Shown: piece after piece, positions 3,685-34,609 of the stretch
Layout of the letters: every line of letters starts with the position of its first letter
How positions within the stretch are numbered: the first letter of the stretch is position 1
Assembly (NCBI GenBank): GCA_045863395.1
Contig: BTVJ01000065.1
Coordinates: forward strand, 1 to 40,894
Direction: 5' to 3'
DNA: 40,894 bases
Source of the DNA: Myxococcales bacterium
GTDB lineage: Bacteria > Myxococcota_A > UBA9042 > JABWCM01 > BTVJ01
Program-made: the position numbers and the translations under genes
The notes under the pieces: model-generated
Told to the model about the DNA's origin: nothing
What the model saw: the letters and a program-made list of their open reading frames with translations, nothing else
Databases searched by the model: none

Positions 3685-3779
3685 GGCTCAGGCCCGGGTC
3701 GGGGCCAGCGCTGCTCGCCACGCACGAGACGAGCCGAAGCGCCGCCACGGGTCTGGCCTGTGGGCTTGCTTCGCCCCCG

Positions 3780-3800
3780 AGCATCCCGTATCAGGATGCT
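3780..3800. promoter_or_regulatory. Inverted repeat AGCATCC-N7-GGATGCT, candidate operator or leader hairpin
   Basis: Perfect 7-bp arms ending 24 bp upstream of the ATG at 3825. Confidence 0.4.
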
Positions 3801-3824
3801 TTCACCGTCACCGCAGAGGTCTCC

Positions 3825-4175
3825 ATGCGCAGGTCACGGCTGTTTCACGCCGTCGTCGTCATCGGGTGCTCCCTGGGGGCAGCAGCGTGCGACGGCGAGG
3901 TCTCCGGGGAAGACGCCCTCTCGGGCACGCCTGCGTACGGCAAGGGCCACCCGGGCTCGCTTGCCCGAACCGACGAGGACGCATCCGTGGCGGGGGATCC
4001 GCACGCGGGGCACGGCGCTGGGGCGCAGGATGCGTCGGCCTCGGGGGGCGCGTCGGGCGCCGGCGACAATCGCGCCACCGGCGACGGCTCTGGGGCGGGT
4101 GACGCCCGCGAAGCCACGGACGCGGTGCAGGATGGCGAGCCTGGGGAGGAGGACGGATGGCAGCCGACGAAGTAG
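3825..4175 (+). CDS. Small low-complexity lipoprotein, candidate RiPP-like precursor (116 aa)
   Basis: GAGGT RBS; signal peptide with lipobox (MRRSRLFHAVVVIGCSLGAAA-C); G/A/D/S-rich disordered body with DPHAGHG; C-terminal GWQPTK contains the only Trp. Confidence 0.75.
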   Translation: MRRSRLFHAVVVIGCSLGAAACDGEVSGEDALSGTPAYGKGHPGSLARTDEDASVAGDPHAGHGAGAQDASASGGASGAGDNRATGDGSGAGDAREATDAVQDGEPGEEDGWQPTK

Positions 4176-4966
4176 CCTTCGACCCGGCGGGACGCTGGGG
4201 CGGGCGCCTGACCTCCAGGGACCTGCCCGACGACCCCACCGTCGAGGCGCTGCCCGCCGCAGACCGCGCGGAGCTCGCCACCCACTGGCTGCAGCGCGGT
4301 GCGTCCGAGCTGCGGGTCGGAGAGTCCTTCGCCGTCATCCGGGACGCCCTGGCGGAGCACGGCTCCGACCACCTGGCCGCCCTTGCCGCACGGGCGGTCG
4401 ACGACGAGGCACGGCACGCCCAGCTGTCGCGCGTCGTCGCCTCCCGCTACGCCGGCGTGGAGCTGGCCCCGCTGCCCCGCCTGCCCCACTCCGTTCCAGC
4501 GCACGCATCCGCGCCTCCCGCGCTGCGCCGCTCCCTGTGGGTGGTCGGGCAGTGCTGCCTCAACGAGACCATCGCGACCGCGGTCCTGGAGGCGTCCTTC
4601 GCTGCGACGCGCGCTCCGCTGGCCCGCGCCGCGCTCCGGGAGCTGCTCGCCGACGAGGTGGACCACGCGCGCATCGGCTGGGCCCACCTGGCCGAGCTCG
4701 ACGCAGGCGTCCGGGACTCCCTCGGCCCGTGGCTCCTCCCGCTGACCCGCGCCAACGTCCGCATGTGGCGCACCACCCCGCGAGACTACCCGAGCCGGCC
4801 CGAGCTGGTGGAGCACGGAGCGCTGACCCGAGAGCTCCTGGAAGGCGCCATCCAGGCGGCGCTGCGAGACCTCGTGATCCCGGGCTTCACCCGCCTGGAG
4901 CTCCAGACCGAGCCCCTGCGCCGCTGGGCGGACGCGGGCACGCCGACCGAGCAGGAGACGCCATGA
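4157..4966 (+). CDS. Ferritin-like four-helix diiron protein
   Basis: Ligand pattern E / ExxH / E / ExxH in RGASEL, DDEARH, CCLNET and DEVDH. No signal peptide. Start overlaps the upstream gene by 19 nt, with GGAGGAGG RBS. Confidence 0.85.
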   Translation: MAADEVAFDPAGRWGGRLTSRDLPDDPTVEALPAADRAELATHWLQRGASELRVGESFAVIRDALAEHGSDHLAALAARAVDDEARHAQLSRVVASRYAGVELAPLPRLPHSVPAHASAPPALRRSLWVVGQCCLNETIATAVLEASFAATRAPLARAALRELLADEVDHARIGWAHLAELDAGVRDSLGPWLLPLTRANVRMWRTTPRDYPSRPELVEHGALTRELLEGAIQAALRDLVIPGFTRLELQTEPLRRWADAGTPTEQETP

Positions 4967-5850
4967 GCCGCGCGTTCGCCACGGCCCTCGCCCTGAGCCT
5001 TGGAGCATGCGGCGCGGCGGATCCAGAGCCCTCGAACCCGGCGGCGGAGTACGCCCCGACCGGGCACACCGTCGAGGTGGACCTGGAGATCGAGGAGATC
5101 GACTGGGAGGTCGCCCCCGGGGCCATCTACGGCGCCGTCGCCTACAACCGCTCGGTTCCGGGCCCGATCATCGAGGCGACGGCGGGCGACCGCATCCGCA
5201 TCCGCCTGACGAACCGCACCGGCACGCCGCGCAGCATCCACACGCACGTGGTGCACTTCACCGAGAACAGCGACGGGACCAAGAAGGGCGTGGCCCAGCC
5301 CGGCGAGACCATCACCGTGGAGTGGGAGGCCGTGCATCCGGGGACCTTCCCGTACCACGACCACGCGGGCCACGGCGAGGCGGAGGGGATGGCGGCGGGC
5401 CTGATCGGCGCCCTGGTGGTGCACGACCCGAAGGCTCCCGCAGCGCAGGTCGAAAACGTGGTCGTGTTGTCGGACCTCGACATGAGCCGCTTCAAGACGC
5501 TCCCACCCATGGACCACGCGAGCGGCGACGGCGGCCACCACTTCATGCACGTGATCAACGGCCGCGCCTACGAGCAGTGGGTGCCCACGTTCGGCGCCAA
5601 GGTCGGCGACCGGGTCCGCTGGCGCGTCCTGTCCCTGGGCACCGAGTTCCACACCTTCCACGTCCACGGCCACCGCTGGGTCGGCGCCGATGGCGTCCTC
5701 ACCGACAACATCAACCTGGGACCCGGCACCTACGCGACCTTCGACTGGGTCGAGGACAACCCCGGCTCGTGGCTCTACCACTGTCACGTCCCCTCCCACA
5801 TGGAGGGCGGTATGGTCGGCTTGTACCTGGTGGAGCCTGCGGGGCCTTGA
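4963..5850 (+). CDS. Two-domain multicopper oxidase (small laccase, SLAC-like type B), lipoprotein
   Basis: ATGA overlap with the upstream stop; lipobox LGA-C; Cu motifs SIHTH, YHDH, HTFHVHGH and YHCHVPSHMEGGM, with the T1 site in domain 2; 295 aa. Confidence 0.92.
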   Translation: MSRAFATALALSLGACGAADPEPSNPAAEYAPTGHTVEVDLEIEEIDWEVAPGAIYGAVAYNRSVPGPIIEATAGDRIRIRLTNRTGTPRSIHTHVVHFTENSDGTKKGVAQPGETITVEWEAVHPGTFPYHDHAGHGEAEGMAAGLIGALVVHDPKAPAAQVENVVVLSDLDMSRFKTLPPMDHASGDGGHHFMHVINGRAYEQWVPTFGAKVGDRVRWRVLSLGTEFHTFHVHGHRWVGADGVLTDNINLGPGTYATFDWVEDNPGSWLYHCHVPSHMEGGMVGLYLVEPAGP

Positions 5851-5911
5851 CCCCCTGTCGCACCTGGACTAGAGAGGGCGCGGGGGGCTCACCCACCCAC
5901 GGAGGCGACCG

Positions 5912-7555
5912 ATGCCCACCTTCCACTACCAGGAGCTGCTCCCACTCGGAGAGGATGACACGCGCTATCGCAAGCTGAGCGGCGATCACGTCACCCTCGG
6001 GACGTACAAGGGGCGCGAGGTGCTCGAAGTCGCCCCGGAGGGGCTCACGCTGCTGGCGCGCGAGGCCATGCGGGACGCGGCCCACCTGCTCCGCACGGGG
6101 CACCTGGAGCAGCTCGCCGCGATCTTGAAGGACCCGGAGGCCTCGCCCAACGACCGGTTCGTCGCGCTGGACCTGCTGAAGAACGCCGTGATCGCTGCGG
6201 AGGGCGTGCTGCCGTCGTGCCAGGACACCGGCACGGCGGTCGTGTTCGGGAAGAAGGGGCAGGCGGTGTGGACCGGCGGCTCGGACGAGGAGGCCCTGTC
6301 TCGCGGCATCTACCAGACCTACACGGAGACCAACCTGCGCTACTCCCAGGTCGCCCCGCTCTCCATGTTCGAAGAGAAGAACACGGGGACCAACCTGCCG
6401 GCGCAGATCGACCTCCTGGCCACGCCTGGCGACGACTACCGGTTCCTGTTCCTGGCAAAGGGCGGCGGCTCCGCCAACAAGACCTACCTGTTCCAGGAGA
6501 CCAAGGCGCTGCTCACGCCGGAGAGCCTGGAGCGCTTCGTCGCCGAGAAGCTCCAGACCATCGGCACGTCGGCGTGTCCTCCCTACCACCTGGCCCTGGT
6601 CATCGGCGGCACCTCCGCCGAGGCCACCATGAAGGTGACGAAGCTCGCCAGCACCAAGTACCTGGACCACCTCCCGACGACCGGCAATGAGCACGGGCGC
6701 GCCTTCCGGGACCTGGAGACCGAGGCCCTCGTGCTGCGCCTCGCCCAGCAGACGGGCATCGGCGCCCAGTTCGGGGGCAAGTACTTCGCCCACGACGTCC
6801 GCGTCGTCCGCCTGCCGCGGCACGGCGCCTCGTGCCCCGTGGGCCTGGGCGTGAGCTGCAGCGCGGACCGCAACATCAAGGGCAAGATCACGCGGGACGG
6901 CATCTTCCTGGAGGAGCTGGACCGCGAGCCGGCTCGGTTCCTACCGGGGCCCGGCGGCACGGCGGACCACGACGACGCCGTCCGCATCGACCTGAGCCGC
7001 CCCATGGCAGAGATTCGCGCCGCGCTGTCGCACCTGCCCGTCGGCACCCGGGTCATGCTCAACGGTCCGCTGGTCGTCGCCCGCGACATGGCCCACGCGA
7101 GGCTCAAGGAGCGCCTGGACCGGGGCGAGGGCCTGCCCGCGTCCTTCCTGAACCACCCGGTCTACTACGCCGGCCCCGCCAAGACCCCGGAGGGCTACGC
7201 CAGCGGCAGCTTCGGCCCGACCACCGCGGGGCGCATGGACTCCTACGTGGACCTCTTCCAGAGCCACGGCGGCTCCATGGTCATGCTCGCCAAGGGCAAC
7301 CGCAGCAAGCAGGTCACCGACGCGTGCAAGGCCCACGGCGGCTTCTACCTCGGCTCCATCGGCGGCCCGGCGGCGCGCCTGGCCAAGGACTGCATCCGCA
7401 AGGTGGAGGTCCTGGAGTACCCGGAGCTCGGCATGGAGGCCATCTGGCGCATCGAGGTCGAGGACTTCCCCGCCTTCGTCATCGTCGACGACAAGGGCAA
7501 CGACTTCTACGCGGCCTTGCGGGGCGCGTCCCTCGGCGGCGTCGCCATCCGCTAG
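5912..7555 (+). CDS. fumA: Class I fumarate hydratase (Fe-S)
   Basis: [43 protein letters not shown] and ELGMEAIW motifs. fumA and fumB cannot be distinguished from sequence alone. Confidence 0.96.
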
Positions 7556-10692: not shown

Positions 10693-12087
10693 TCACGCAC
10701 CGCTTCGCAGCAGCCGGCCCAGCGACGCCGGGTCCAGGTGGGCCACGGAGTGCCGCCCGATGTCCAGGAGGGTGCGCAGCCGCCCCCCCGAGGGCGCCGC
10801 GACGGTGCGACCCATGGCCCCCGCGACCACCCGCAGGTACTCCCGCGCGAAGACCGCCGGGCTCGTCGTGTCTCCACCGAGCAGGCCCAACGTGGCGCGA
10901 CGAAAGTGGGGGCTGGCCTCCCAGGATCGGAACACGCCGCCCCGAAGCGCGCCCGCGCCCGGCTCCGGCGACCGGAAGACCTCGTACAGCGCCCGCGCCA
11001 GGAGCGCCCGCGTCTCGAAGAAGGGCCGGCGGTCCCGCTGGTACCGGCGCAGAGGCGCGTCGTCCCGGCCGCCCCCGTCCAGGTACGCGTCCACCCCGGC
11101 GAGCAGATGCCGCACGTCGTTCAGCCCGTTGGTCATGCCTGCCGCCGTCATGGGGTGGGCGCACCCGCAGGCGTCTCCGACCAGCACGGCGCCCGGCAGC
11201 CAGACCCGCTCGGCCGCCATGCGGTAGTTGGGGGCGATCTGGAGTTGGTCCGGGCGCTCGATGGCCGCCTCCACCGCGGGCCGGAACTCCGCGGGCAGGA
11301 GCGGTACGTACTGCTCTCGCAGGTGCGCGGCCAGCCGGTCGCGCCGCCCCTCCGAGAAGTCCGGCGGGAGATCGAACACCATGCGGGCCTCGGTGGCGCT
11401 GATCGGGTAGGCCAGCACGGGTCCCCAGGCGCCGAGGAAGATGTGCCCGTGGCCGGCCACCGGCAAGGCACTGGCTGGGACGGTCGCGCCCCCGCTGAAG
11501 CTGATGCGCTCCTCGTCGGGATCCAGCCCCAGCGCCTTGCGCACCCGCGAGTGGCGCCCGTCGGCGACCACCAGGAGCGTCGCGTAGATGTCGCGCGGCT
11601 CCCCGGAGCGACCCGCGAGGCGGGCTCCGAAGACGCGCCCTTGTGAGACCAGCGGCGCCTCGACGCGCCCGTGGACCCAGGTCACTCCCGTCGCCGCGGC
11701 GGCGCGCTCGCGCAGCGTCTCCACCAGGACGTGGTGGGGAATGGCCAGGCCCCGGGGCGGCACGCCGCGGATCTCGTCGTAGCGGAGCAGCGTGGGGTCC
11801 TCGTGCGAGCTGCCCGGGAACACCGCGAACCCGTGGACGTCGATGGCGCCGGCCCCGTGGAGGGGGCCCAGCAGACCGAGGCGCTCCAGGATCGCGACGC
11901 CCGCCGGGTGCATCAGCTCCCCGGCGAGGCGCTTGTGGGCCGCCCCCGGCTTCGCCTCGACGACCGCCACGCGCCGCCCCTCCCGCGCGAGCGCGCTCGC
12001 CACGACGCTCCCGATGAAGCCGCCGCCAGCCACGATGACGTCCACGGTGCGGGGCAGGTCGCTGACCGACGCGTAGGGCACACCCAT
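10693..12087 (-). CDS. FAD-dependent monooxygenase, squalene epoxidase-like
   Basis: GGAGGAG RBS. Motifs DVIVAGGGFIG, GELMHPAG, ADGRHSRVRK, HGHIFLG..GPVLAYPISATEAR and GDACGCAHPMTAAGMTNGLND parallel SQLE motifs GELLQPGG, HGHVIL..YxIS..E.R and GDA.NMRHPLTGGGMTV. Confidence 0.75.
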   Translation of the reverse strand: MGVPYASVSDLPRTVDVIVAGGGFIGSVVASALAREGRRVAVVEAKPGAAHKRLAGELMHPAGVAILERLGLLGPLHGAGAIDVHGFAVFPGSSHEDPTLLRYDEIRGVPPRGLAIPHHVLVETLRERAAAATGVTWVHGRVEAPLVSQGRVFGARLAGRSGEPRDIYATLLVVADGRHSRVRKALGLDPDEERISFSGGATVPASALPVAGHGHIFLGAWGPVLAYPISATEARMVFDLPPDFSEGRRDRLAAHLREQYVPLLPAEFRPAVEAAIERPDQLQIAPNYRMAAERVWLPGAVLVGDACGCAHPMTAAGMTNGLNDVRHLLAGVDAYLDGGGRDDAPLRRYQRDRRPFFETRALLARALYEVFRSPEPGAGALRGGVFRSWEASPHFRRATLGLLGGDTTSPAVFAREYLRVVAGAMGRTVAAPSGGRLRTLLDIGRHSVAHLDPASLGRLLRSGA

Positions 12088-12121
12088 TCCAGGCTCCTCC
12101 AAAGTGCAGCATGTTCGTGGA

Positions 12122-12140
12122 ACCCGACCATTGGTCGGGT
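12122..12140. promoter_or_regulatory. Perfect palindrome ACCCGACCA-T-TGGTCGGGT, TetR-like operator candidate
   Basis: 9-bp perfect arms in the divergent intergenic region, at the predicted transcription start of the minus-strand promoter. Confidence 0.6.
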
Positions 12141-12146
12141 CTGGCG

Positions 12147-12175
12147 ATGATGGCCAGCGCCCCACGCGCCGTCAA
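12147..12175 (-). promoter_or_regulatory. Sigma70-like promoter for the squalene-epoxidase-like gene
   Basis: Minus strand TTGACG-N17-CATCAT. Confidence 0.5.
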
Positions 12176-12289
12176 CAAATTTCGACTCACGGTCTGGTTT
12201 TTCTCGAACGCCGGTCGCCTGTCATGGATGCGACACCGCGGCGGCTCTGCTATGCTCCGCACCCCCGGAGGGTGCCCCTCGGAGGTGTC

Positions 12290-15028
12290 ATGCGGAGCAG
12301 GTTCCTCGCGACGGCAGTCCGGCTCGCCGTCGATCATCGGCGGGTCGTTTTCGCGGTGTGGGTCGCCCTGTGCGTGGCGTCGGTGGCCGTGCTCCTGACG
12401 CGCGGCCTGCGCATCGACACGTCCCGGCAGGCCATGGTGAGCGAGGACAACGTCGACTCCCGGCGCTACCAGGAGCTGCTGCGGGAGTTCGGCACGCCGC
12501 TCCACGTCGTGCTGGTGGTCGAGGGGGACGACCCGACCACGAACCGCGCCTACGCGGACACCCTCGCCGCAGCGCTCCGCACCCAGGACACCGTCGGAGA
12601 CGTGCTGTACCGGGCGGACACGGCGGCCATGCGCAGCTACGCCCTGCTCTATGCGCCGCTGCCAGAGCTCCAGGCCCTGCGAGAGCGCCTGCGCGCGGCC
12701 GCCGACGCCATGGGACGCACCGCGGAGACCAATGCCCGCCTGGACATCCAGGGTCTGACGGGCGCCCTCGAGGAGGCCAACCAGGCGCTCTCGTCCCTGG
12801 AGGAGGGCGACACGGAGGGCTGGGGGCGGGCCCAATCCCTCGCAGACCACGCGGGGCAGGTCAATGACGCCGTCGGGGCCATCTTCCAGGTGGTCCGGGA
12901 CGCCCTGTCCACCGACGGGTGGACCGAGCTGCAGCTCGTCAAGTCCGTCGGCGCGACCGACGTCGCCGCGGCCGGCATCGACGACCACGGCTACCTCTCC
13001 GCGAGGGACGGGCGCCTCCTGCTCCTGTTCGTGAAGCCTGCGAGCCCGAGCGAGCAGGTCGGCTACCTCATCCCCATGGTGGACGCCGTCCGCCGCACCG
13101 CCGAGGCCCTCGCCCCGCCGGGCGTCACCGTCGGCGTCACCGGCTCCCCCGCCTTCGTCGCCGAGGAGATGCTCCAGGTCAACCACGACATGATCCTGAC
13201 CGGGACGGTCTCACTGGTCGCGGTGCTCCTGCTGTTCCTCCTCGCCTACCGCTCCCTGGTCAAGACGGCGCTCGTCTTCGTTCCGCTGCTCGCCGGGGTG
13301 CTGCTCGCGGTCGGCGTCGTCTCGCTGGTGCTCGGGCACCTGAACCTCATGTCGAGCATGTTCTTCGCCATCCTGGTGGGCCTGGGCATCGACTTCGGCA
13401 TCCACCTGATCACGCGCTTCGACGAGGCGGTCGGCGGCGGCGCAGACCGCGCCGCGGCCCTGGAGGAGACCCTCCACAGCGCGGGCCCCGGCGTGCTCAC
13501 CGGCGCCCTGACCACCGTCGCCGCCTTCCTGACCATGACGGCCAGCGAGTTCACCGCCATGCGGGAGCTGGGCCTGGTCGCCGGGACCGGGGTGCTCCTG
13601 GTGCTGCTCGCGACGCTCACGCTGCTGCCCTGCATGCTCGGCGGGGCGAGCGCCCCAGCGACCGCGGCCCCAAGACACCACATGCACCGCTTCCTGTCCC
13701 GCTTCGCCCGCTACCCTGGCTGGAGCCTCCTGGTCTCGGCCGCGATCACCGCCGCGCTGGCGTCCGCGATCCGCCCGATCACCTTCGACTTCGACATCAA
13801 GCAGTTCCTGCCGGCCGACAGCCCGGCCATGAAGGCGTTCACCACCATCGAGGAGAGTGACTACTACAACCCGGACTTCGCGGTGCTCGTCGCCGGCAGC
13901 CTCACCGAGGCGCGGGAGTGGACACGCGCCCTGGAGCGTCAGACGGATCTGGTCGCCCGCGTCGAGTCCATCGCCACCTACCTGCCTGCCGACCAGGACA
14001 CCAAGGAGCCGGTGGTGCGCGAGGTGGCGGCCCTGGCCCGCCGCTTCCCGCTGCTGAAGCTCCAACCGGACGCGACCCCCGACGCGGCCCGCTTCCGCGC
14101 CGCGCTGAGCAAGACCGTCGAGTACCTGGAGGTGGATGTCCCGCTGACACTGCAGATGCACGGGCTCGCCACGCTGGCCCCGGGCGCCCGACAGCTCGCC
14201 GAGGAGGCGCGGCGCACCCTCGAGGCCATCGAGGGTCTGCCCGACGCGACCCTCTCGGCACGCCTCGCCAACCTGGAGACGCGCCTCGCCGGCATGCTGG
14301 ACGGCACCGAGGAGCTGATCCACTCGGGCAGGACGCGCGTCGCCCCAGAGGACCTCCCCGAGGAGGTCGTCAACCAGTACTACCGAGTGTCAGAGAACGG
14401 CGAACGGCTCGTGGTGCGCGTGTTCCCCAAGGGCAGCATCTCGGACCCGGAGTTCATGGGCCGCTTCCGCGCGGCCCTCGCCGCCATCTACCCCGACGTC
14501 ACCGGCTACCCGATCACGTTTCTGGCCTTCGGGGAGCTGCTGCGCGACGGCCTGGAGCTGGCCGGGGTCCTGGCGCTCATCTTGATCGTGGTGCTGCTCG
14601 GCGTCGACCTCCGCTCCGCGCGCGACGTGGTGGCGAGCCTCGTCCCCCTGGCCCTCGGCGTCGTCTGGATGATCGGCGGCATGAACCTGCTCGGCATCGG
14701 CTACAACTTCGCCAACCTCATGGCCGTCCCGCTGCTGCTGGGCATGGGCATCGACAGCGGCGTCCACATCGTCCATCGCTGGCGCCAGGGGACGGCCCCC
14801 GCAGACGTGGCCGGCACGGCGGGCAAGGCGGTCACCCTCTCGTCGCTGACCACCATGGCGAGCTTCGGCTCCATGGCGCTCGCAGATCACCGGGGCATGC
14901 AGTCGCTGGGCGAGACCCTGCTCCTGGGCATGGGGGCGTGTCTGGTCCTGTCCGTGGTTGCGCTGCCGGCGCTGCTCGCCCTCTACGAGAGGTTCACCGC
15001 TTCACGGCGGTCGCCGGGTGGACCTTGA
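12290..15028 (+). CDS. MMPL/RND lipid transporter, HpnN/BstA-like
   Basis: GGAGGT RBS; two TM bundles with GLGIDFGIH and GMGIDSGVH motifs; large periplasmic loops; HRGMQSLG near the C-terminus; 912 aa. Confidence 0.88.
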   Translation: MRSRFLATAVRLAVDHRRVVFAVWVALCVASVAVLLTRGLRIDTSRQAMVSEDNVDSRRYQELLREFGTPLHVVLVVEGDDPTTNRAYADTLAAALRTQDTVGDVLYRADTAAMRSYALLYAPLPELQALRERLRAAADAMGRTAETNARLDIQGLTGALEEANQALSSLEEGDTEGWGRAQSLADHAGQVNDAVGAIFQVVRDALSTDGWTELQLVKSVGATDVAAAGIDDHGYLSARDGRLLLLFVKPASPSEQVGYLIPMVDAVRRTAEALAPPGVTVGVTGSPAFVAEEMLQVNHDMILTGTVSLVAVLLLFLLAYRSLVKTALVFVPLLAGVLLAVGVVSLVLGHLNLMSSMFFAILVGLGIDFGIHLITRFDEAVGGGADRAAALEETLHSAGPGVLTGALTTVAAFLTMTASEFTAMRELGLVAGTGVLLVLLATLTLLPCMLGGASAPATAAPRHHMHRFLSRFARYPGWSLLVSAAITAALASAIRPITFDFDIKQFLPADSPAMKAFTTIEESDYYNPDFAVLVAGSLTEAREWTRALERQTDLVARVESIATYLPADQDTKEPVVREVAALARRFPLLKLQPDATPDAARFRAALSKTVEYLEVDVPLTLQMHGLATLAPGARQLAEEARRTLEAIEGLPDATLSARLANLETRLAGMLDGTEELIHSGRTRVAPEDLPEEVVNQYYRVSENGERLVVRVFPKGSISDPEFMGRFRAALAAIYPDVTGYPITFLAFGELLRDGLELAGVLALILIVVLLGVDLRSARDVVASLVPLALGVVWMIGGMNLLGIGYNFANLMAVPLLLGMGIDSGVHIVHRWRQGTAPADVAGTAGKAVTLSSLTTMASFGSMALADHRGMQSLGETLLLGMGACLVLSVVALPALLALYERFTASRRSPGGP

Positions 15029-27995: not shown

Positions 27996-28206
27996 CGACG
28001 ACCGGCGCCTCCGCTCCACACCCACGAAGGCCGCAGCGATGCCGGCGCGCGATCCCCTCACGACGCGGCCAACGGCGGGGCGGCACGTGAGACCAGGGAC
28101 CCGCTGGTGAGGGAGACCTCGCGAGGGCGTCGCGTTGCCCCTTCCGCTGACCTGTGCTACACACACCGGGTCGAGCCTCAACTCAAACTGGAAGGACGCG
28201 CCCCCC

Positions 28207-28992
28207 GTGGACTCCCTGCGACCACGACTCGCCGCCGCACTCGCGCTGCTTGCCGGCTGCGTGCAGGCGGGCGACCCGCTCTTCCAGACCGTCGCGCCGG
28301 CCGCAGATGCGGCGAGCGGCGGCCCATGCGACCAGCCGGTGGACTTCGCGACCCAGGTCGTGCCCATCCTGGAGGGCAACTGCGCCCTGTCTGGCTGCCA
28401 CAAGGGCCCCGGCGGCGCGGCGGGGCTCGTGCTGGACGGGGACGTGGCGCACGCCAACCTCGTCGGCGTGACGGCCGGTGGGTCGAGCAAGAGCCTGGTC
28501 GCGGCAGGGGACGTCGGGGGGAGCTTCGTGGCGGACCGCATCCAAGCGGCCAACGGCGCGTCCATCATGCCTCCGGTTGGGGACCCGCTGGGCGAAGACG
28601 ACCTCCAGACCGTGCTGTGCTGGATCGAGCAGGGGGCCACGCAGGCGGCAGCCGACCCGTGCGCCACGCCGGTGGACTACGAGAAGACCATCCAGCCCAT
28701 CTTCAGCTCGACGTGCGCCCTGGGGGGCTGCCACAAGGGCCCGAGCGGCGTGCTCGGCCTCGTGCTGGACGTCGGCGCGTCCTATGACCTCATCGTGGAC
28801 AAGGTGGCGAAGGGATCGTCGAAGAAGCTCATCGCCCCGGGAGACCCGGACGCCAGCTTCCTCTTCGATCGGGTCCGGGCGGCCAACGGCGCGTCGATCA
28901 TGCCCCCCGTGGGCGATCCGGTGCCGGCGGCCCAGGTGGAGCAGATCCGGTGCTGGATCCAGCAAGGCGCGCCCCGCGAGGTGGCCCCATGA
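28207..28992 (+). CDS. Di-heme c-type cytochrome lipoprotein with CX4CH motifs
   Basis: GTG start; lipobox LAG-C; two near-identical domains carrying CALSGCH and CALGGCH, each with a distal IMPP. Confidence 0.8.
   Translation: MDSLRPRLAAALALLAGCVQAGDPLFQTVAPAADAASGGPCDQPVDFATQVVPILEGNCALSGCHKGPGGAAGLVLDGDVAHANLVGVTAGGSSKSLVAAGDVGGSFVADRIQAANGASIMPPVGDPLGEDDLQTVLCWIEQGATQAAADPCATPVDYEKTIQPIFSSTCALGGCHKGPSGVLGLVLDVGASYDLIVDKVAKGSSKKLIAPGDPDASFLFDRVRAANGASIMPPVGDPVPAAQVEQIRCWIQQGAPREVAP
28324..28971 (+). repeat. Internal tandem domain duplication, 333-nt period
   Basis: Units start at 28324 and 28657; both read PC..PVD[FY]...CAL.GCHKGP.G..GLVLD...GSSK.L.A.GD...SF..DR..AANGASIMPPVGDP....CWI.QGA. 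Confidence 0.9.
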
Positions 28993-30344
28993 CGCGGTTG
29001 TCCCTGGCCACGCTCGCGCTGCTCGTCGCCTTGCCCGCCGCCGCGGCCGAGTTCCAGATCCGCTCGGACACCATCGGCGACTTCTACGGGACGCTGCGCA
29101 GCGACGGCGAGGAGATCTCACGCCGCCGCCTGCACCAGATGCTCGGCCTCGACGTGTTCGACCTGTCGGGCGACGGGTCCAACGACCTGTTCTTCGTCTC
29201 CAGCTTCCGGTTCGACAGCGATCTGGGCATCGCGCAGGAGGAGCTGGACCGGGTGGGGCAGCTCCGCCGCGAGCGCGTGAGCATCATGTACGCCTACTTC
29301 GAGGCGCGGGAGCTGCTCGGCTTCCTGGGCATCCGCCTCGGGCGCCAGATGGAGATCGACGCGGTGGACATGCTGCTCTGGGACGGGCTGAAGCTGCGCT
29401 TCGACACGCCATGGTACTTCGGCGTCGAGACCCTCGTCGGGGTGGAGGCGCGCAACGACTTCGGCCCGCTGACCACCAGCAGCTTCGAAGGGGACGGGCG
29501 CCGCGAAGGCGACCTGCTCATGGATGGCAGCTTCGGCGACGTCTCGCCGGGCCTCGTGTGGGGCGGCTCCATCTACTTGCGAGATCTGACGTGGACGCAC
29601 CTCGCCGTCACCTTCCGCGAGATCCGCAACACGGACGACGACGACATCGAGCAGCGTCGCCTCGCGGTGGCCTTCCAACAGCGCATCCAGGACTGGCTCT
29701 TCGTCGAGGGGACGGCCAGCTACGACTTCTTCCTGGAGTTGGGCAACGAGTACCGCGCTGCGCTGCGCTTCCGTCCGGTGGACTGGTTCGACGGGCGGGT
29801 CCAGTACCACTACCTGCTGCCCAGCTTCTCCGCGGACTCCATCTTCAACGTCTTCTCGTGGCGCCCCATCAACCGGGCGGAGGGCACGGGCACCTTCGAC
29901 GTGGGCCATGGCCTCACAGTGTACGGCGGCGGCTATGCCTCCTTCCTGGAGACCGACGCCCTCGGCGAGAAGGTGACCGACCGCATGGTGCAGGACACGG
30001 GCATCCAGGCCGGCGCGCGGTGGGTGCCGGGGCCCGAGGGGCAGGTGTGGCTCGACGCCCAGACCCAGTTCGGCTACGGCGGCGACCAGACGTTCGTCAG
30101 CGCGGGCGCCGAGTGGTGGTTCCTGGAGCGCACCCTGGGCGTGGACGGCCGCGTGGTGCTCATCCTCTGGGACGATCAGGTCCAGCAGAACCTGGAGGGC
30201 ACGCTGTTCGGGGTGCAGGCCGGCGGCACGTGGCAGTTCGTGCAAGGTGGCAAGCTGCGGCTCCTCGTCGAGGAGGCGACCACCGAGCTCCAGCCGAGCT
30301 GGTTCCGGGCGATGGGCATGGTGGAGATCTCACGGTGGCTGTGA
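28989..30344 (+). CDS. Predicted outer-membrane beta-barrel (porin partner of the cytochromes)
   Basis: Sec signal ending AAA; alternating amphipathic strands rich in G/Y/F/W; 4-nt overlaps with both flanking cytochrome genes; 451 aa. Confidence 0.8.
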   Translation: MTRLSLATLALLVALPAAAAEFQIRSDTIGDFYGTLRSDGEEISRRRLHQMLGLDVFDLSGDGSNDLFFVSSFRFDSDLGIAQEELDRVGQLRRERVSIMYAYFEARELLGFLGIRLGRQMEIDAVDMLLWDGLKLRFDTPWYFGVETLVGVEARNDFGPLTTSSFEGDGRREGDLLMDGSFGDVSPGLVWGGSIYLRDLTWTHLAVTFREIRNTDDDDIEQRRLAVAFQQRIQDWLFVEGTASYDFFLELGNEYRAALRFRPVDWFDGRVQYHYLLPSFSADSIFNVFSWRPINRAEGTGTFDVGHGLTVYGGGYASFLETDALGEKVTDRMVQDTGIQAGARWVPGPEGQVWLDAQTQFGYGGDQTFVSAGAEWWFLERTLGVDGRVVLILWDDQVQQNLEGTLFGVQAGGTWQFVQGGKLRLLVEEATTELQPSWFRAMGMVEISRWL

Positions 30345-31630
30345 ACGCAAGACGGATCATCATCGGGGTCGCGCTCGTGGGAGTCGGGGTTGCCAGCGTG
30401 TCCGCCCAGAGCTGGGACGGCACGAACCCCGACGCGACCGTCGTCGACCGGCACCACACCCCGTCGGGCGTGATCTTCCCGGACCAGCGCCTGCCCCTCC
30501 GCATGCTCCACGGAGTTCACCTGAAGCTCGGGCTCCAGTGCGTCCAGTGCCACGAGGACGCCGAGTCCAGCACGCGCGCGTCGGACAACCTGCTCCCGAA
30601 GGGTGAGTCCTGCGATATGTGCCACCAGCTCACCGAGCCCGACCCGGGCAAGCTGGTCCCCGCGGCGGCGTGCAGCACCTGCCACCTGGGCGCGAAGGAC
30701 GGCGCGCTGGCGACGGGAGTGAACCCCCACGAGGCGAAGCCGGGGACGCTGCCCAGAGAGGCGCTCCCGCCCTCGGTGCACCTGCCGCCCCCGAACCTGA
30801 AGTTCAACCACAAGGTCCACGTGGACCGGAAGATCGAGTGCACCACCTGCCACGAGGGCATGGACGGCATCGGCACCGCCACGCGAGACAACGCGCTGCC
30901 GGTCATGGGCAAGTGCCTGGAGTGCCACGACAACAAGCAGGCGCCCTCGGCCTGCGGCACCTGCCACGTGACCACGCCCGACAACCTGGTCGTCAAGGAC
31001 TACCCCACGGGCAAGCTGGCCCCGAAGGGCTACTACCGGAGCGACAACCACGGCGCGCCCGACTGGGTGAGGGCCCACGAGGTGGCTGCGCGCGCCGACG
31101 AGAGCTACTGCGCGGCCTGCCACACGAAGCGGGAGTGCACCGAGTGCCACAACGGCATCCTGCGCCCCATGAGCATCCACCCCGCCAACTGGGTGCTCCT
31201 GCACCCGACCACGGCCCGCAAGAACAGCCTGGAGTGCCAGAGCTGCCACCGGGAGCAGAGCTTCTGCCTCGACTGCCACCAGCGCTCCCGCCTGTCGGAC
31301 CTGTCGCCCAACGACAACCCGGGCGTGCTCGTCCACCCCCGCGGCTGGGTCAACAACCTCGTCGGTGGGGAGAGGCCTGGCCCGAACCACCACAAGTGGC
31401 AGGCACAGCGAAACATCCGCACCTGCGCGAGCTGTCACCAGGAGAACACCTGCGTCAAGTGCCACTCGGCGCGGGACGTGCCAGGCTTCGGCGTCACCCC
31501 CAAGTTCAACAAGGTCAACCCGCACCCCGCGGACTTCGCGACCCGGTGCGGCACCATGCTCGCCGCCAACAAGGGCATGTGCAGCAAGTGCCACGACCCG
31601 GGTGACCCGCACCTGGCCCGCTGCCGCTGA
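30341..31630 (+). CDS. Periplasmic multiheme cytochrome c with 13 CxxCH motifs
   Basis: GTG start with signal peptide. Motifs: CVQCH, CDMCH, CSTCH, CTTCH, CLECH, CGTCH, CAACH, CTECH, CQSCH, CLDCH, CASCH, CVKCH, CSKCH. Also c3/c7-like HxxH motifs (LHGVH, FNHKVH). Confidence 0.95.
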   Translation: MNARRIIIGVALVGVGVASVSAQSWDGTNPDATVVDRHHTPSGVIFPDQRLPLRMLHGVHLKLGLQCVQCHEDAESSTRASDNLLPKGESCDMCHQLTEPDPGKLVPAAACSTCHLGAKDGALATGVNPHEAKPGTLPREALPPSVHLPPPNLKFNHKVHVDRKIECTTCHEGMDGIGTATRDNALPVMGKCLECHDNKQAPSACGTCHVTTPDNLVVKDYPTGKLAPKGYYRSDNHGAPDWVRAHEVAARADESYCAACHTKRECTECHNGILRPMSIHPANWVLLHPTTARKNSLECQSCHREQSFCLDCHQRSRLSDLSPNDNPGVLVHPRGWVNNLVGGERPGPNHHKWQAQRNIRTCASCHQENTCVKCHSARDVPGFGVTPKFNKVNPHPADFATRCGTMLAANKGMCSKCHDPGDPHLARCR

Positions 31631-33412: not shown

Positions 33413-34278
33413 AGAGCCGCCAGTTGCAGGCCGCCGGCCTGCGCTGGCGGTGCCTGGAGGCCGGCGAGGGACCGCCGCTGGTGCTGCTCCACGGCTTCCC
33501 CGAGGACGCCCGCAGCTTCGACCGCGTGCTTCCGGCGCTGCCCGGACTCCGCTTGATCGCGCCCGACCTCAAGGGCTACGGGGAGACCGACAAGCCGCGC
33601 CCCGGGGGCCCCAACGGCGACTACCGCCCGAGCCGTATGGCGGACGAGCTTGCGGCCCTCCTCGACGTCCTCGCGGCGGAGGCCGGCGTCCAGCAGCTCG
33701 ACGTGGTGGGGCACGACTGGGGGGGCATCCTGCTTTCGGCGCTCGTCGCCCGCCACCCGCGCCTGGTGCGCCGGGCGGTGCTGCTCAACGCCCCGGTCGT
33801 GCGCTTCGTCCCGTGGCGCCCGGTCCACGTCTACGCGTTCAACCTCCCGTGGCTCCCCGAGGCGGCCTTCGCTCGCGATCCGCGCGCCTTCGTGCGGGGC
33901 ATCCTCCGCTGGTGGACGGCCGTGGACGAGGCCTTCACCGAGGAGGACGTCGCCCGGTACGCCGAGGCCCTCTCCGGCGGCTCCATCCGGTGCGCCCTGG
34001 CCTACTACCGGGGGCTCCCCCGGGACCTGCCGTTCATCGTGGACGCGTGGCGGAGCCTACGGACGCGCCCCGCTCCCCCGACCCTGATCATCTGGGGGGC
34101 GCGGGACCCGATCCTTCCGCTGGCGGTGGGCCGCATGGGGGCCGAGGACCTCCGCGCGCGCCTGGCCGTCATCCCTGCCGCGGGGCACTTCGTGCACCGG
34201 GAGGCACCGGCGGAGGTCGCGCGCCTGATCCTGGAGCACCTGGAGGTCAGTCCGAGCCGGCGAGGGACCCGACCGTAG
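33409..34278 (+). CDS. Alpha/beta hydrolase, epoxide hydrolase-like
   Basis: HGFPE, DLKGYG, GHDWG nucleophile, LAYYR, WGARDP and GHFVH; GTGA overlap with sspB. Confidence 0.9.
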   Translation: MKSRQLQAAGLRWRCLEAGEGPPLVLLHGFPEDARSFDRVLPALPGLRLIAPDLKGYGETDKPRPGGPNGDYRPSRMADELAALLDVLAAEAGVQQLDVVGHDWGGILLSALVARHPRLVRRAVLLNAPVVRFVPWRPVHVYAFNLPWLPEAAFARDPRAFVRGILRWWTAVDEAFTEEDVARYAEALSGGSIRCALAYYRGLPRDLPFIVDAWRSLRTRPAPPTLIIWGARDPILPLAVGRMGAEDLRARLAVIPAAGHFVHREAPAEVARLILEHLEVSPSRRGTRP

Positions 34279-34609
34279 CGCGTGGGGCTGCCGGTGCCTT
34301 GGGGGCTCCCTCCCCTTCCAGCTTCGTGACGTCCCCCGTCGTGAACAGGTAGGTGCGCAGCTCCTCGTCCAGCTTGGGGACGCGGCGCCGCAGCCACTCC
34401 AGGGTCATCACGGCGTGCTCTATCTCCTCGTTCATGTTGTGCACGAGGATGGCGCGCAGCTCCTCGTCGCTGGCTGCGTCGGAGCGCTGGCGATACCAGT
34501 CCACGGCCTCCAGCTCCTCGATCAACGAGATGATGGCCCTGTGGATGTCGATGGTCTGTGGCGTGAGCTTGTCGGCAGGCTCGTGGAGTCCGGTGTGTGC
34601 ATCGCCCAT
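34247..34609 (-). CDS. Encapsulated ferritin (EncFtn/Flp) with encapsulin targeting peptide
   Basis: [19 protein letters not shown]...[15 protein letters not shown]...LRTYLFT matches R. rubrum EncFtn; C-terminal ATVGSL. Confidence 0.93.

Follow-up and report, generated by a model that had tools for sequence, protein, structure and literature searches.

A conserved pair of genes for a lipoprotein-like precursor and a ferritin-like diiron protein as a candidate peptide-modification system in Myxococcota

A stretch of 40,894 nucleotides from a Myxococcales bacterium (contig BTVJ01000065.1 of assembly GCA_045863395.1; hereafter the window) carries a cassette encoding, in this order, a small lipoprotein-like protein (gene 1), a ferritin-like diiron protein (gene 2), and a multicopper oxidase (gene 3; Table 1). 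Comparison with homologous loci showed that genes 1 and 2 form a conserved pair, as judged from their co-occurrence, the fixed gene order, the conservation of leader and core, and the intact metal ligands. We consider it likely that gene 1 encodes a precursor and gene 2 the oxygenase modifying it. The initial annotation had proposed a system of all three genes. While the pair was borne out, the laccase is, on sequence comparison, an optional and clade-limited partner that is swapped among unrelated kinds of multicopper oxidase.

The cassette is present once in the 8.8-Mb genome. Coordinates and overlaps were as originally annotated (19 nucleotides between genes 1 and 2, ATGA between genes 2 and 3), and the same three open reading frames (ORFs) were chosen by a codon-model gene caller trained on the source genome. 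The GC content at third codon positions was 0.84–0.94 in the three genes. Homologues of gene 2 fell into 210 clusters. A profile built from 62 of these retrieved 80 genome loci (the best 80 of 153) and 55 metagenome loci; the named records are almost all from Myxococcota. At an enzyme cut-off of at least 250 bits, 101 loci were obtained, and 92 of them had at least 250 nucleotides upstream and were evaluable. A lipoprotein-like ORF with the motif W-x-x-T-K, the arrangement put forward in the initial annotation, was located upstream of the enzyme in 85 of these 92 loci; the locus of the window is counted among the 92, as are three duplicate enzymes. The remaining seven have the same leader and Cys together with other cores such as FPGIS, WPGIL, WGSILVK, and FPGWA. 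Among enzymes below 250 bits, W-x-x-T-K was found in 5 of 19, and PPCYYIL or PPCAYIK cores accompany the leader in several others. Sampling 400 genomes of the phylum evenly yielded seven enzyme loci, six of them with W-x-x-T-K, and four of these six apparently repeat loci already collected.

Sequence logos were derived from the 81 W-x-x-T-K precursors with a callable start. The motif had been expected at the C-terminus; 31 precursors indeed terminate in G-W-x-[PT]-T-K-stop, where G, W, T, and K each reach 100% (C-terminal type), while 50 hold it internally as C-[ED]-x-x-W-P-[TIP]-T-K-G followed by a Cys-rich tail (internal type). W, T, and K are invariant across both types. The leader consensus is [SHT]-[RK]-L-[FL]-H-[TAS]-[IVL]-V, and the linker between Cys and Trp varies from 26 to 180 residues. 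In 29 aligned precursors of the C-terminal type, L6, C22, G111, W112, T115, and K116 are invariant. A Cys follows a hydrophobic stretch in 81/81 precursors, with G, A, or S at position −1 in 80/81, a pattern that suggests a type II signal peptide with lipobox. The gene 1 product contains a single Trp (W112), located in its distinct tip GWQPTK as first noted, and no Cys beyond residue 25. Its linker, which had been described as almost entirely G/A/D/S, is composed of these residues to only 65% (57 of 88). The AlphaFold2 (AF2) model of gene 1 displays a single helix at residues 4–21 and otherwise no structure. A W-x-x-T-K C-terminus occurred in none of 1129 other called proteins in the collected loci, and among the 6615 called proteins of its own genome gene 1 was the sole match to the tip pattern and also the sole match to the leader pattern. 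No Pfam or NCBIfam match was obtained for gene 1 or for five further W-x-x-T-K precursors.

Some further features of the precursors were considered and set aside. The His motif DPHAGHG is present in gene 1 as annotated; it does not align across the 29 precursors, the number of linker His residues (0–12) is independent of the presence of an oxidase, and the motif was rejected as a conserved copper site and as a part of the system. Tat export of the precursor was rejected since a twin-Arg occurs in only 4/81 leaders. A natural leader-enzyme fusion (P0213) is devoid of W-x-x-T-K, may be a frameshift product, and was not used. In a sister group (L078, L083, and L103; the upstream ORFs end near 5995), the same leader is joined to repeated cores in the precursors, FPGIS/FPTIA and WGGIR/WPTIA/WPGIL, and the corresponding enzymes display pocket changes at N200 and V54.

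The ATG of gene 2 and the Trp codon of gene 1 have bases in common in the window, GGAGGAGG lying just upstream, and the overlap with the enzyme start exceeds 4 nucleotides in 7 of the 31 C-terminal cases. The tip might accordingly merely reflect the ribosome-binding site and the start codon of gene 2, which overlap it, its clustering with the enzyme being coincidental, a doubt already raised in the initial annotation. We regard this as extremely improbable. The other 24 C-terminal precursors have no enzyme overlap in the motif (chosen start at or after −4), codons inside the motif vary synonymously, the 50 internal motifs sit 26–99 residues ahead of the stop codon, and the background of the motif was 0/1129 proteins. 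An overlap artefact is ruled out by the conservation in 85/92 loci, the invariant W, T, and K, and the non-overlapping cases.

The product of gene 2 has no hydrophobic stretch at its N-terminus and possesses a complete set of diiron ligands (E51, E84, H87, E137, E167, and H170; E/ExxH/E/ExxH), in agreement with the initial annotation. All six ligands are intact in 86/86 W-x-x-T-K-linked enzymes, and E51, E84, H87, E137, and H170 are invariant also in 106 more distant rows. The AF2 model (predicted local distance difference test score, pLDDT, 95.8) is all-helical, has no strands, and contains a four-helix ferritin core inside a larger helical fold. The top VIA matches were a PaaA-like protein (Z 16.8, root-mean-square deviation (rmsd) 3.1, 208 aligned residues), methane monooxygenase hydroxylase (Z 16.3, rmsd 4.2, 245 aligned), PaaA (Z 16.2, rmsd 3.3, 221 aligned), and aldehyde-deformylating oxygenase (Z 15.9, rmsd 3.6, 205 aligned), with bacterioferritins and Dps at Z 10–12; helical proteins can reach a high Z from their arrangement alone, and the agreement of the ligand set was therefore set beside these values. 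The fold is shared, at Z 11–17, with the ferritin-like diiron oxygenases PaaA, the hydroxylases of soluble methane, toluene, and phenol monooxygenases, aldehyde-deformylating oxygenase, BoxB, AurF/CmlI, and acyl-ACP desaturases, which have the same set of four carboxylates and two His. In contrast to these enzymes, to which it is 8–20% identical, gene 2 belongs to no named family, and its predicted substrate is the tip of a ribosomal peptide in a surface groove. Based on the model, we concluded that the gene 2 product has a ferritin-like oxygenase fold.

Sequence-based searches were less informative on this protein. Gene 2 and four enzyme homologues matched no Pfam or NCBIfam family, and Pfam AurF was matched weakly by 16/106 family members (best E 7.6e-08). 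A PDB sequence search with the enzyme returned nothing significant beyond designed diiron proteins, and the best Foldseek hit of the model, at E 0.003, fell short of 0.001. The fold searches listed neither MNIO nor HDO folds; this absence by itself is no proof against them. At E 0.001, the wider gene 2 family counts 4521 representatives. In relatives of the source genome, its distant members follow lipoprotein-like ORFs with other tips, e.g. PWGPPAPP and VGPLYPP. The same genome holds a second, distant pair on the minus strand of another contig (C122:564-2086, locus L027), in which a 245-residue lipoprotein-like ORF ending in CNPWGPPAPP plus a tail is coupled by a 4-nucleotide overlap to a 262-residue ferritin-like protein; the PWGPPAPP type recurs in the class relatives L004, L005, L010, L013, and L029. 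A third distant ferritin-like gene (294 residues) is located directly 3' of a 459-residue Cys-containing lipoprotein-like ORF (C23:71908-74164, minus strand).

We performed co-folding with ESMFold2 using the enzyme, two Fe, residues 1–30 of the precursor (leader, unscored), and precursor residues 87–116 as the scored partner. The enzyme with the tip scored 0.91, compared to 0.03 for the best of three controls; the mark is reached by 116/157 solved complexes and 2/215 mismatched pairs, counts that are only roughly valid here. The runs shared at least 55% of contacts, with a partner pLDDT of at least 51. Of the two precursor ends for which co-folding had been suggested, the C-terminal tip was the scored one, and the leader was included unscored. 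Predicted contacts of the precursor are limited to residues 107–116, placed at the diiron site in a groove flanked by the helices of E51 and E137. W112 contacts V54, S57, P114, G131, Q132, L135, N136, N200, and M203 of the enzyme, and T115 contacts S50 and V54; further interface positions are 43, 46–51, 139–140, 143, 204, 207, and 209. These positions flank the ligands E51 and E137, and in toluene and methane monooxygenases the substrate cavity is lined by the equivalent positions. Among the predicted interface residues, R53, V54, L109, P114, G131, N136, A140, N200, and W204 do not vary among the 86 enzymes. The model indicates binding of the tip at the active-site groove of the enzyme, not catalysis.

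R47 and R209 are placed in the model such that they could hold the terminal carboxylate of the tip. R47 is Arg in 30/30 enzymes of the C-terminal type and in 22/22 of one internal clade, and Gln in 34/34 of a second internal clade. R209 is Arg in 30/30 enzymes of the C-terminal type and in 0/56 of the internal type (one gap), a pattern that is compatible with a carboxylate clamp and that amounts to only two independent contrasts on the enzyme tree, itself a quick IQ-TREE result.

Gene 3 had been annotated as an exported copper oxidase, and its sequence is in line with this: it carries two Cu-oxidase domains and a hydrophobic N-terminus with Cys16. We identified the motifs H93-x-H95, H132-x-H134, H230/H233/H235, H273-C274-H275, and H279; the ligand roles are taken from an alignment with ceruloplasmin and from SLAC. 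Among bacterial PDB entries, it matches small or two-domain laccases best (E 1e-28 to 1e-24). As in the small two-domain laccases SLAC and Ssl1 (PDB 3cg8, 3t9w), His pairs are present in each of the two cupredoxin domains and the type 1 ligands in domain 2; gene 3 differs from these in its predicted lipoprotein signal. It is the only multicopper oxidase found in the 8.8-Mb genome (six seeds), and its subfamily is mostly metagenomic, with at least 133 clusters at E 1e-50.

Multicopper oxidases were counted in loci with at least 3 kb on both sides after removal of four duplicate loci. They flank 11/16 C-terminal-type loci, the window included, compared to 0/39 internal-type loci, an association that represents one or two independent contrasts on the enzyme tree and is overstated by a Fisher p of 4e-8. 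The co-occurrence with copper genes that the initial annotation had suggested testing was, for multicopper oxidases and in the loci counted, seen only at the C-terminal type. Short C-terminal loci had a multicopper oxidase in 3/15 cases, and one enzyme clade (SH-aLRT 89) in 14/23 rows. The flanking oxidases are of four kinds, at most about 37% identical between kinds, and lie either upstream or downstream of the pair. The two-domain kind occurs in the window, L032, and L111 (64–71% identical), the only collected loci in which an oxidase of this kind follows the pair. Three-domain lipoprotein-type oxidases are found in L031, L113, and L041, CopA-like oxidases in L041 and L035, and oxidases bearing CBM5/12 carbohydrate-binding modules in L050, L073, L080, L102, and L114, with fragments in L116 and L136. 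In L175, from the 400-genome sample, a precursor with a C-terminal WPITK is again followed by an oxidase-like ORF. A fixed three-gene system was rejected, since the two-domain oxidase follows the pair in only three collected loci and stands alone in L167. Three enzyme and three oxidase database entries agree in source and in the length of the longest contig (1919, 8047, and 2231), which may point to additional trios. Several oxidase loci also hold genes for copper-type P1B (CopA-type) ATPases, CopM/DUF305, cupredoxin, Cus-like efflux, and Cys-tailed ECF sigma factors. This replaceable neighbouring oxidase suggests copper handling at the cell envelope.

In 5/15 oxidase loci the palindrome GTGACC-N5-GGTCAC lies upstream of the precursor, and further copper genes have it as well. 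Its density in copper-resistance loci is roughly fourfold higher (14 sites in 101 kb compared to 22 in 679 kb), the pattern having been derived from these loci. We consider it a candidate operator of a copper regulator in several Myxococcota loci. Two side observations concern the oxidase loci. The CBM5/12-fused oxidases of 800–880 residues (L050:2956-5577, L073:3133-5616, L080:3223-5643, L102:3005-5617, and L114:3100-5733) lie directly upstream of precursors in which GWPPTK is preceded by an additional 8-Cys module. Beside multicopper oxidases of copper loci, at L031:8204-8548, L041:3558-4070, L175:2312-2674, and L167:2403-2831, there recurs a small lipoprotein-like ORF whose members have an SNE motif in common at the C-terminus; one member matches fn3 weakly.

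In the mechanism we propose, the W-x-x-T-K tip would lie in the groove at the diiron site with W112 in its pocket and the terminal carboxylate held by R47 and R209, and an O2-dependent oxidation would occur within the W112–T115 segment before the probable export of the precursor. If the tip is modified, oxygenation of the Trp ring would be the likeliest outcome, closely followed by oxidation of Thr115 or the backbone, with N-oxygenation or a cross-link of Lys less likely than either. Electrons would come from housekeeping donors, as no reductase recurs in the loci. After Sec export and anchoring by diacylglyceryl-Cys22, an acidic tether of about 90 residues would carry the modified tip. Within the C-terminal clade, this tip might bind copper and, like bufferins, serve in copper detoxification, alongside the multicopper oxidase; this copper role is proposed by analogy and is tentative, and we lean slightly against it.

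Several observations weigh against this reading, in addition to the few independent contrasts behind the R209 pattern and the oxidase association. Mean conservation at the predicted interface (0.68) is only modestly above that elsewhere (0.60). The co-fold controls were unrelated proteins with no motif-scrambled tip among them, and the score says nothing on leader binding. The target residue was left unfixed because the co-fold returned no distance to the iron. Position −3 of the lipobox is variable and often non-canonical among the 81 precursors. With regard to copper, most enzyme loci have no copper gene, and copper therefore cannot be the purpose of the whole family; one internal-type locus (L076) has a copper ATPase, and L167 has a two-domain oxidase without the pair in a Cus/CopA locus. 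GTGACC-N5-GGTCAC is absent from the window, including the region upstream of gene 1, and no copper-resistance gene besides the oxidase was recognised among those called genes of the window that were scanned.

An alternative role of the oxidase would be that of a second biosynthetic enzyme. The diiron enzyme would hydroxylate Trp112 in the cytoplasm, and the exported oxidase would make a quinone that couples to Lys116 or to surface polymers or cycles as a tethered redox mediator. Quinone cofactors derived from Trp and Tyr provide a precedent. The invariant Trp and Lys are spaced four residues apart, W112 is buried beside N136 and V54 next to the ligand helices in the co-fold, unrelated oxidase kinds have been recruited right beside the pair on either side, and the best NCBIfam match of the CBM5/12 kind is the o-aminophenol oxidase PhsA, below cut-off. 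However, no oxidase is near any of the 39 internal-type loci, 4/16 C-terminal loci are without any copper gene, the two-domain oxidase of L167 does without the pair, and sister cores start with Phe or Cys; we consider such a two-step maturation unlikely.

The tip might also bind without being turned over, plugging or gating the diiron site or tethering the diiron protein to the membrane, while the protein acts on a small molecule such as peroxide, O2, NO, or a lipid, e.g. against copper-driven oxidative stress. Co-fold and covariation do speak for recognition and not for turnover, no reductase, protease, or transporter is recurrent in the loci, and the lower-ranked structural matches include ferritin-like proteins that are not oxygenases. 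A lasting complex would, however, need to cross compartments, as the precursor has an export signal and the enzyme none, and piggy-backing via Tat is unlikely given the scarcity of twin-Arg leaders. Moreover, the leader is kept while the cores change in sister subfamilies, which is the usual precursor-enzyme pattern, and the top structural matches are oxygenases acting on substrates. Binding without turnover therefore appears improbable to us, and modification of the gene 1 tip by the gene 2 enzyme is the reading we prefer.

The logic of genes 1 and 2 resembles that of two described groups of ribosomally synthesised peptides that are modified post-translationally (RiPPs). In DAG-RiPPs (DybA/DybH, NedA/NedBC), as described in the main text of PMC13056109, the gene of a cytoplasmic non-haem iron enzyme likewise follows that of a precursor, which has a type II signal peptide and a short motif that is conserved; the motif may be C-terminal or embedded, and a copper role is proposed for some members. 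The enzymes there are MNIO TIM barrels acting on the Cys motifs CPACGMG and EGKCG, whereas the predicted product of gene 2 is a ferritin-like diiron protein made up of helices, with W-x-x-T-K as the core; the words 'ferritin', 'diiron', and 'tryptophan' do not occur in that main text. In bufferins (BufA/BufBC), according to the text available of PMC11626156, a Sec-exported precursor is also modified by an iron enzyme: an MNIO and a DUF2063 partner turn Cys into 5-thiooxazole in a folded small protein, and the product buffers copper in the envelope. Gene 1 and its homologues share with DAG-RiPPs the lipobox Cys, by pattern, with C22 invariant. The MNIO/DUF692 TIM barrel of both described groups is not what the all-helical model of gene 2 displays, and their conserved core Cys has no counterpart in the C-terminal logo, where Cys occurs at −2 in only 32%; internal-type precursors have Cys at −4 in 88%. 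The logic matches that of DAG-RiPPs and bufferins, but enzyme fold and core chemistry differ, and class membership would depend on a demonstrated modification.

Within the literature covered, which left out most subscription journals and supplements, we found no description of this system and no ferritin-like RiPP enzyme, and a search on the core motif returned nothing relevant. The passages available of the CoiH and curacozole papers mention neither 'ferritin' nor 'diiron', and those of a review on HDOs cite one RiPP link for these enzymes, whose fold differs from that of gene 2. The pair is probably an undescribed peptide-modification system. It might represent a new RiPP class, an idea to which we give nearly even weight, in which a ferritin-like diiron oxygenase uses the signal peptide as leader and converts a Trp/Thr/Lys tip into a non-Cys metal-binding or quinone-forming group, yielding a lipid-anchored copper ligand or redox arm for the multicopper oxidase; this class would then be a single branch of a superfamily that counts thousands of myxobacterial enzymes, with a core motif particular to each. 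The described lipoprotein RiPPs use MNIO chemistry at Cys, and ferritin-like diiron oxygenases as modifiers of ribosomal peptides were not found in the literature searched. A five-residue core with invariant W, T, and K, a one-enzyme cassette, and a confident binding model offer an unusually cheap route to new peptide chemistry, and the link to multicopper oxidases is the first point of access to the function of a large unnamed family of myxobacteria. It may bring to light a membrane metallophore without Cys or a redox cofactor derived from a protein.

Table 1. Positions of the cassette genes, their motifs, and putative regulatory sites (window numbering unless a collected locus is named)
Feature	Position	Strand	Remarks
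Gene 1, predicted precursor lipoprotein	3825..4175	+	116 residues: leader/signal peptide, Cys22, disordered linker, C-terminal GWQPTK
Conserved leader within predicted type II signal peptide, up to Cys22	3825..3890	+	precursor logo; putative lipidation
Core motif G-W-Q-P-T-K	4155..4172	+	homologue alignments; predicted enzyme binding
Gene 2, signal-less ferritin-like diiron protein, candidate peptide-modifying oxygenase	4157..4966	+	269 residues; fold model, ligands
Gene 3, two-domain multicopper oxidase (small-laccase type), predicted lipoprotein signal, optional partner	4963..5850	+	295 residues; PF07732 and PF07731
Possible promoter/operator (weak): TTGCTT-17-TATCAG overlapped by inverted repeat AGCATCC-7-GGATGCT	3766..3800	+	read from sequence
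GTGACC-N5-GGTCAC upstream of copper-resistance genes	L113:758, L113:3368, L031:2277, L111:3693, L035:5564, L032:5587, L041:409, L167:2933		

The inverted repeat in the possible promoter/operator upstream of gene 1 is a single site in the genome at up to one mismatch, and it was absent upstream of 18 homologues inspected by eye. A scan for sigma-70 consensus promoters and terminators reported none. Public runs containing the stretch numbered 20 in the list obtained, six of them recorded as RNA, from three studies. One contig from an RNA library spans 3800 to 7513 and starts at the 3' edge of the possible promoter/operator (3800); it is compatible with expression of the cassette, although such contigs give no strand, level, or single transcript. 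The best gene 2 match among 60 relatives, nearly all of the same class, had an E of 3e-23, and a close homologue was present in only 7/400 sampled genomes of the phylum; the distribution of the cassette is therefore patchy.

Apart from the cassette, the window contains an ORF for an IS1595-family transposase that runs past the contig end (1-699, minus strand) and a gene for a squalene-epoxidase-like FAD monooxygenase divergent from one for an MMPL-family transporter (10693-15028), which are possibly sterol-related. Three coupled genes at 28135-31630 encode a PSCyt1-domain ORF, an unannotated exported protein of 451 residues, and a multihaem cytochrome with 13 CxxCH motifs. An encapsulin-associated ferritin-like protein (EncFtn, PF22277) is encoded at 34247-34609 on the minus strand.

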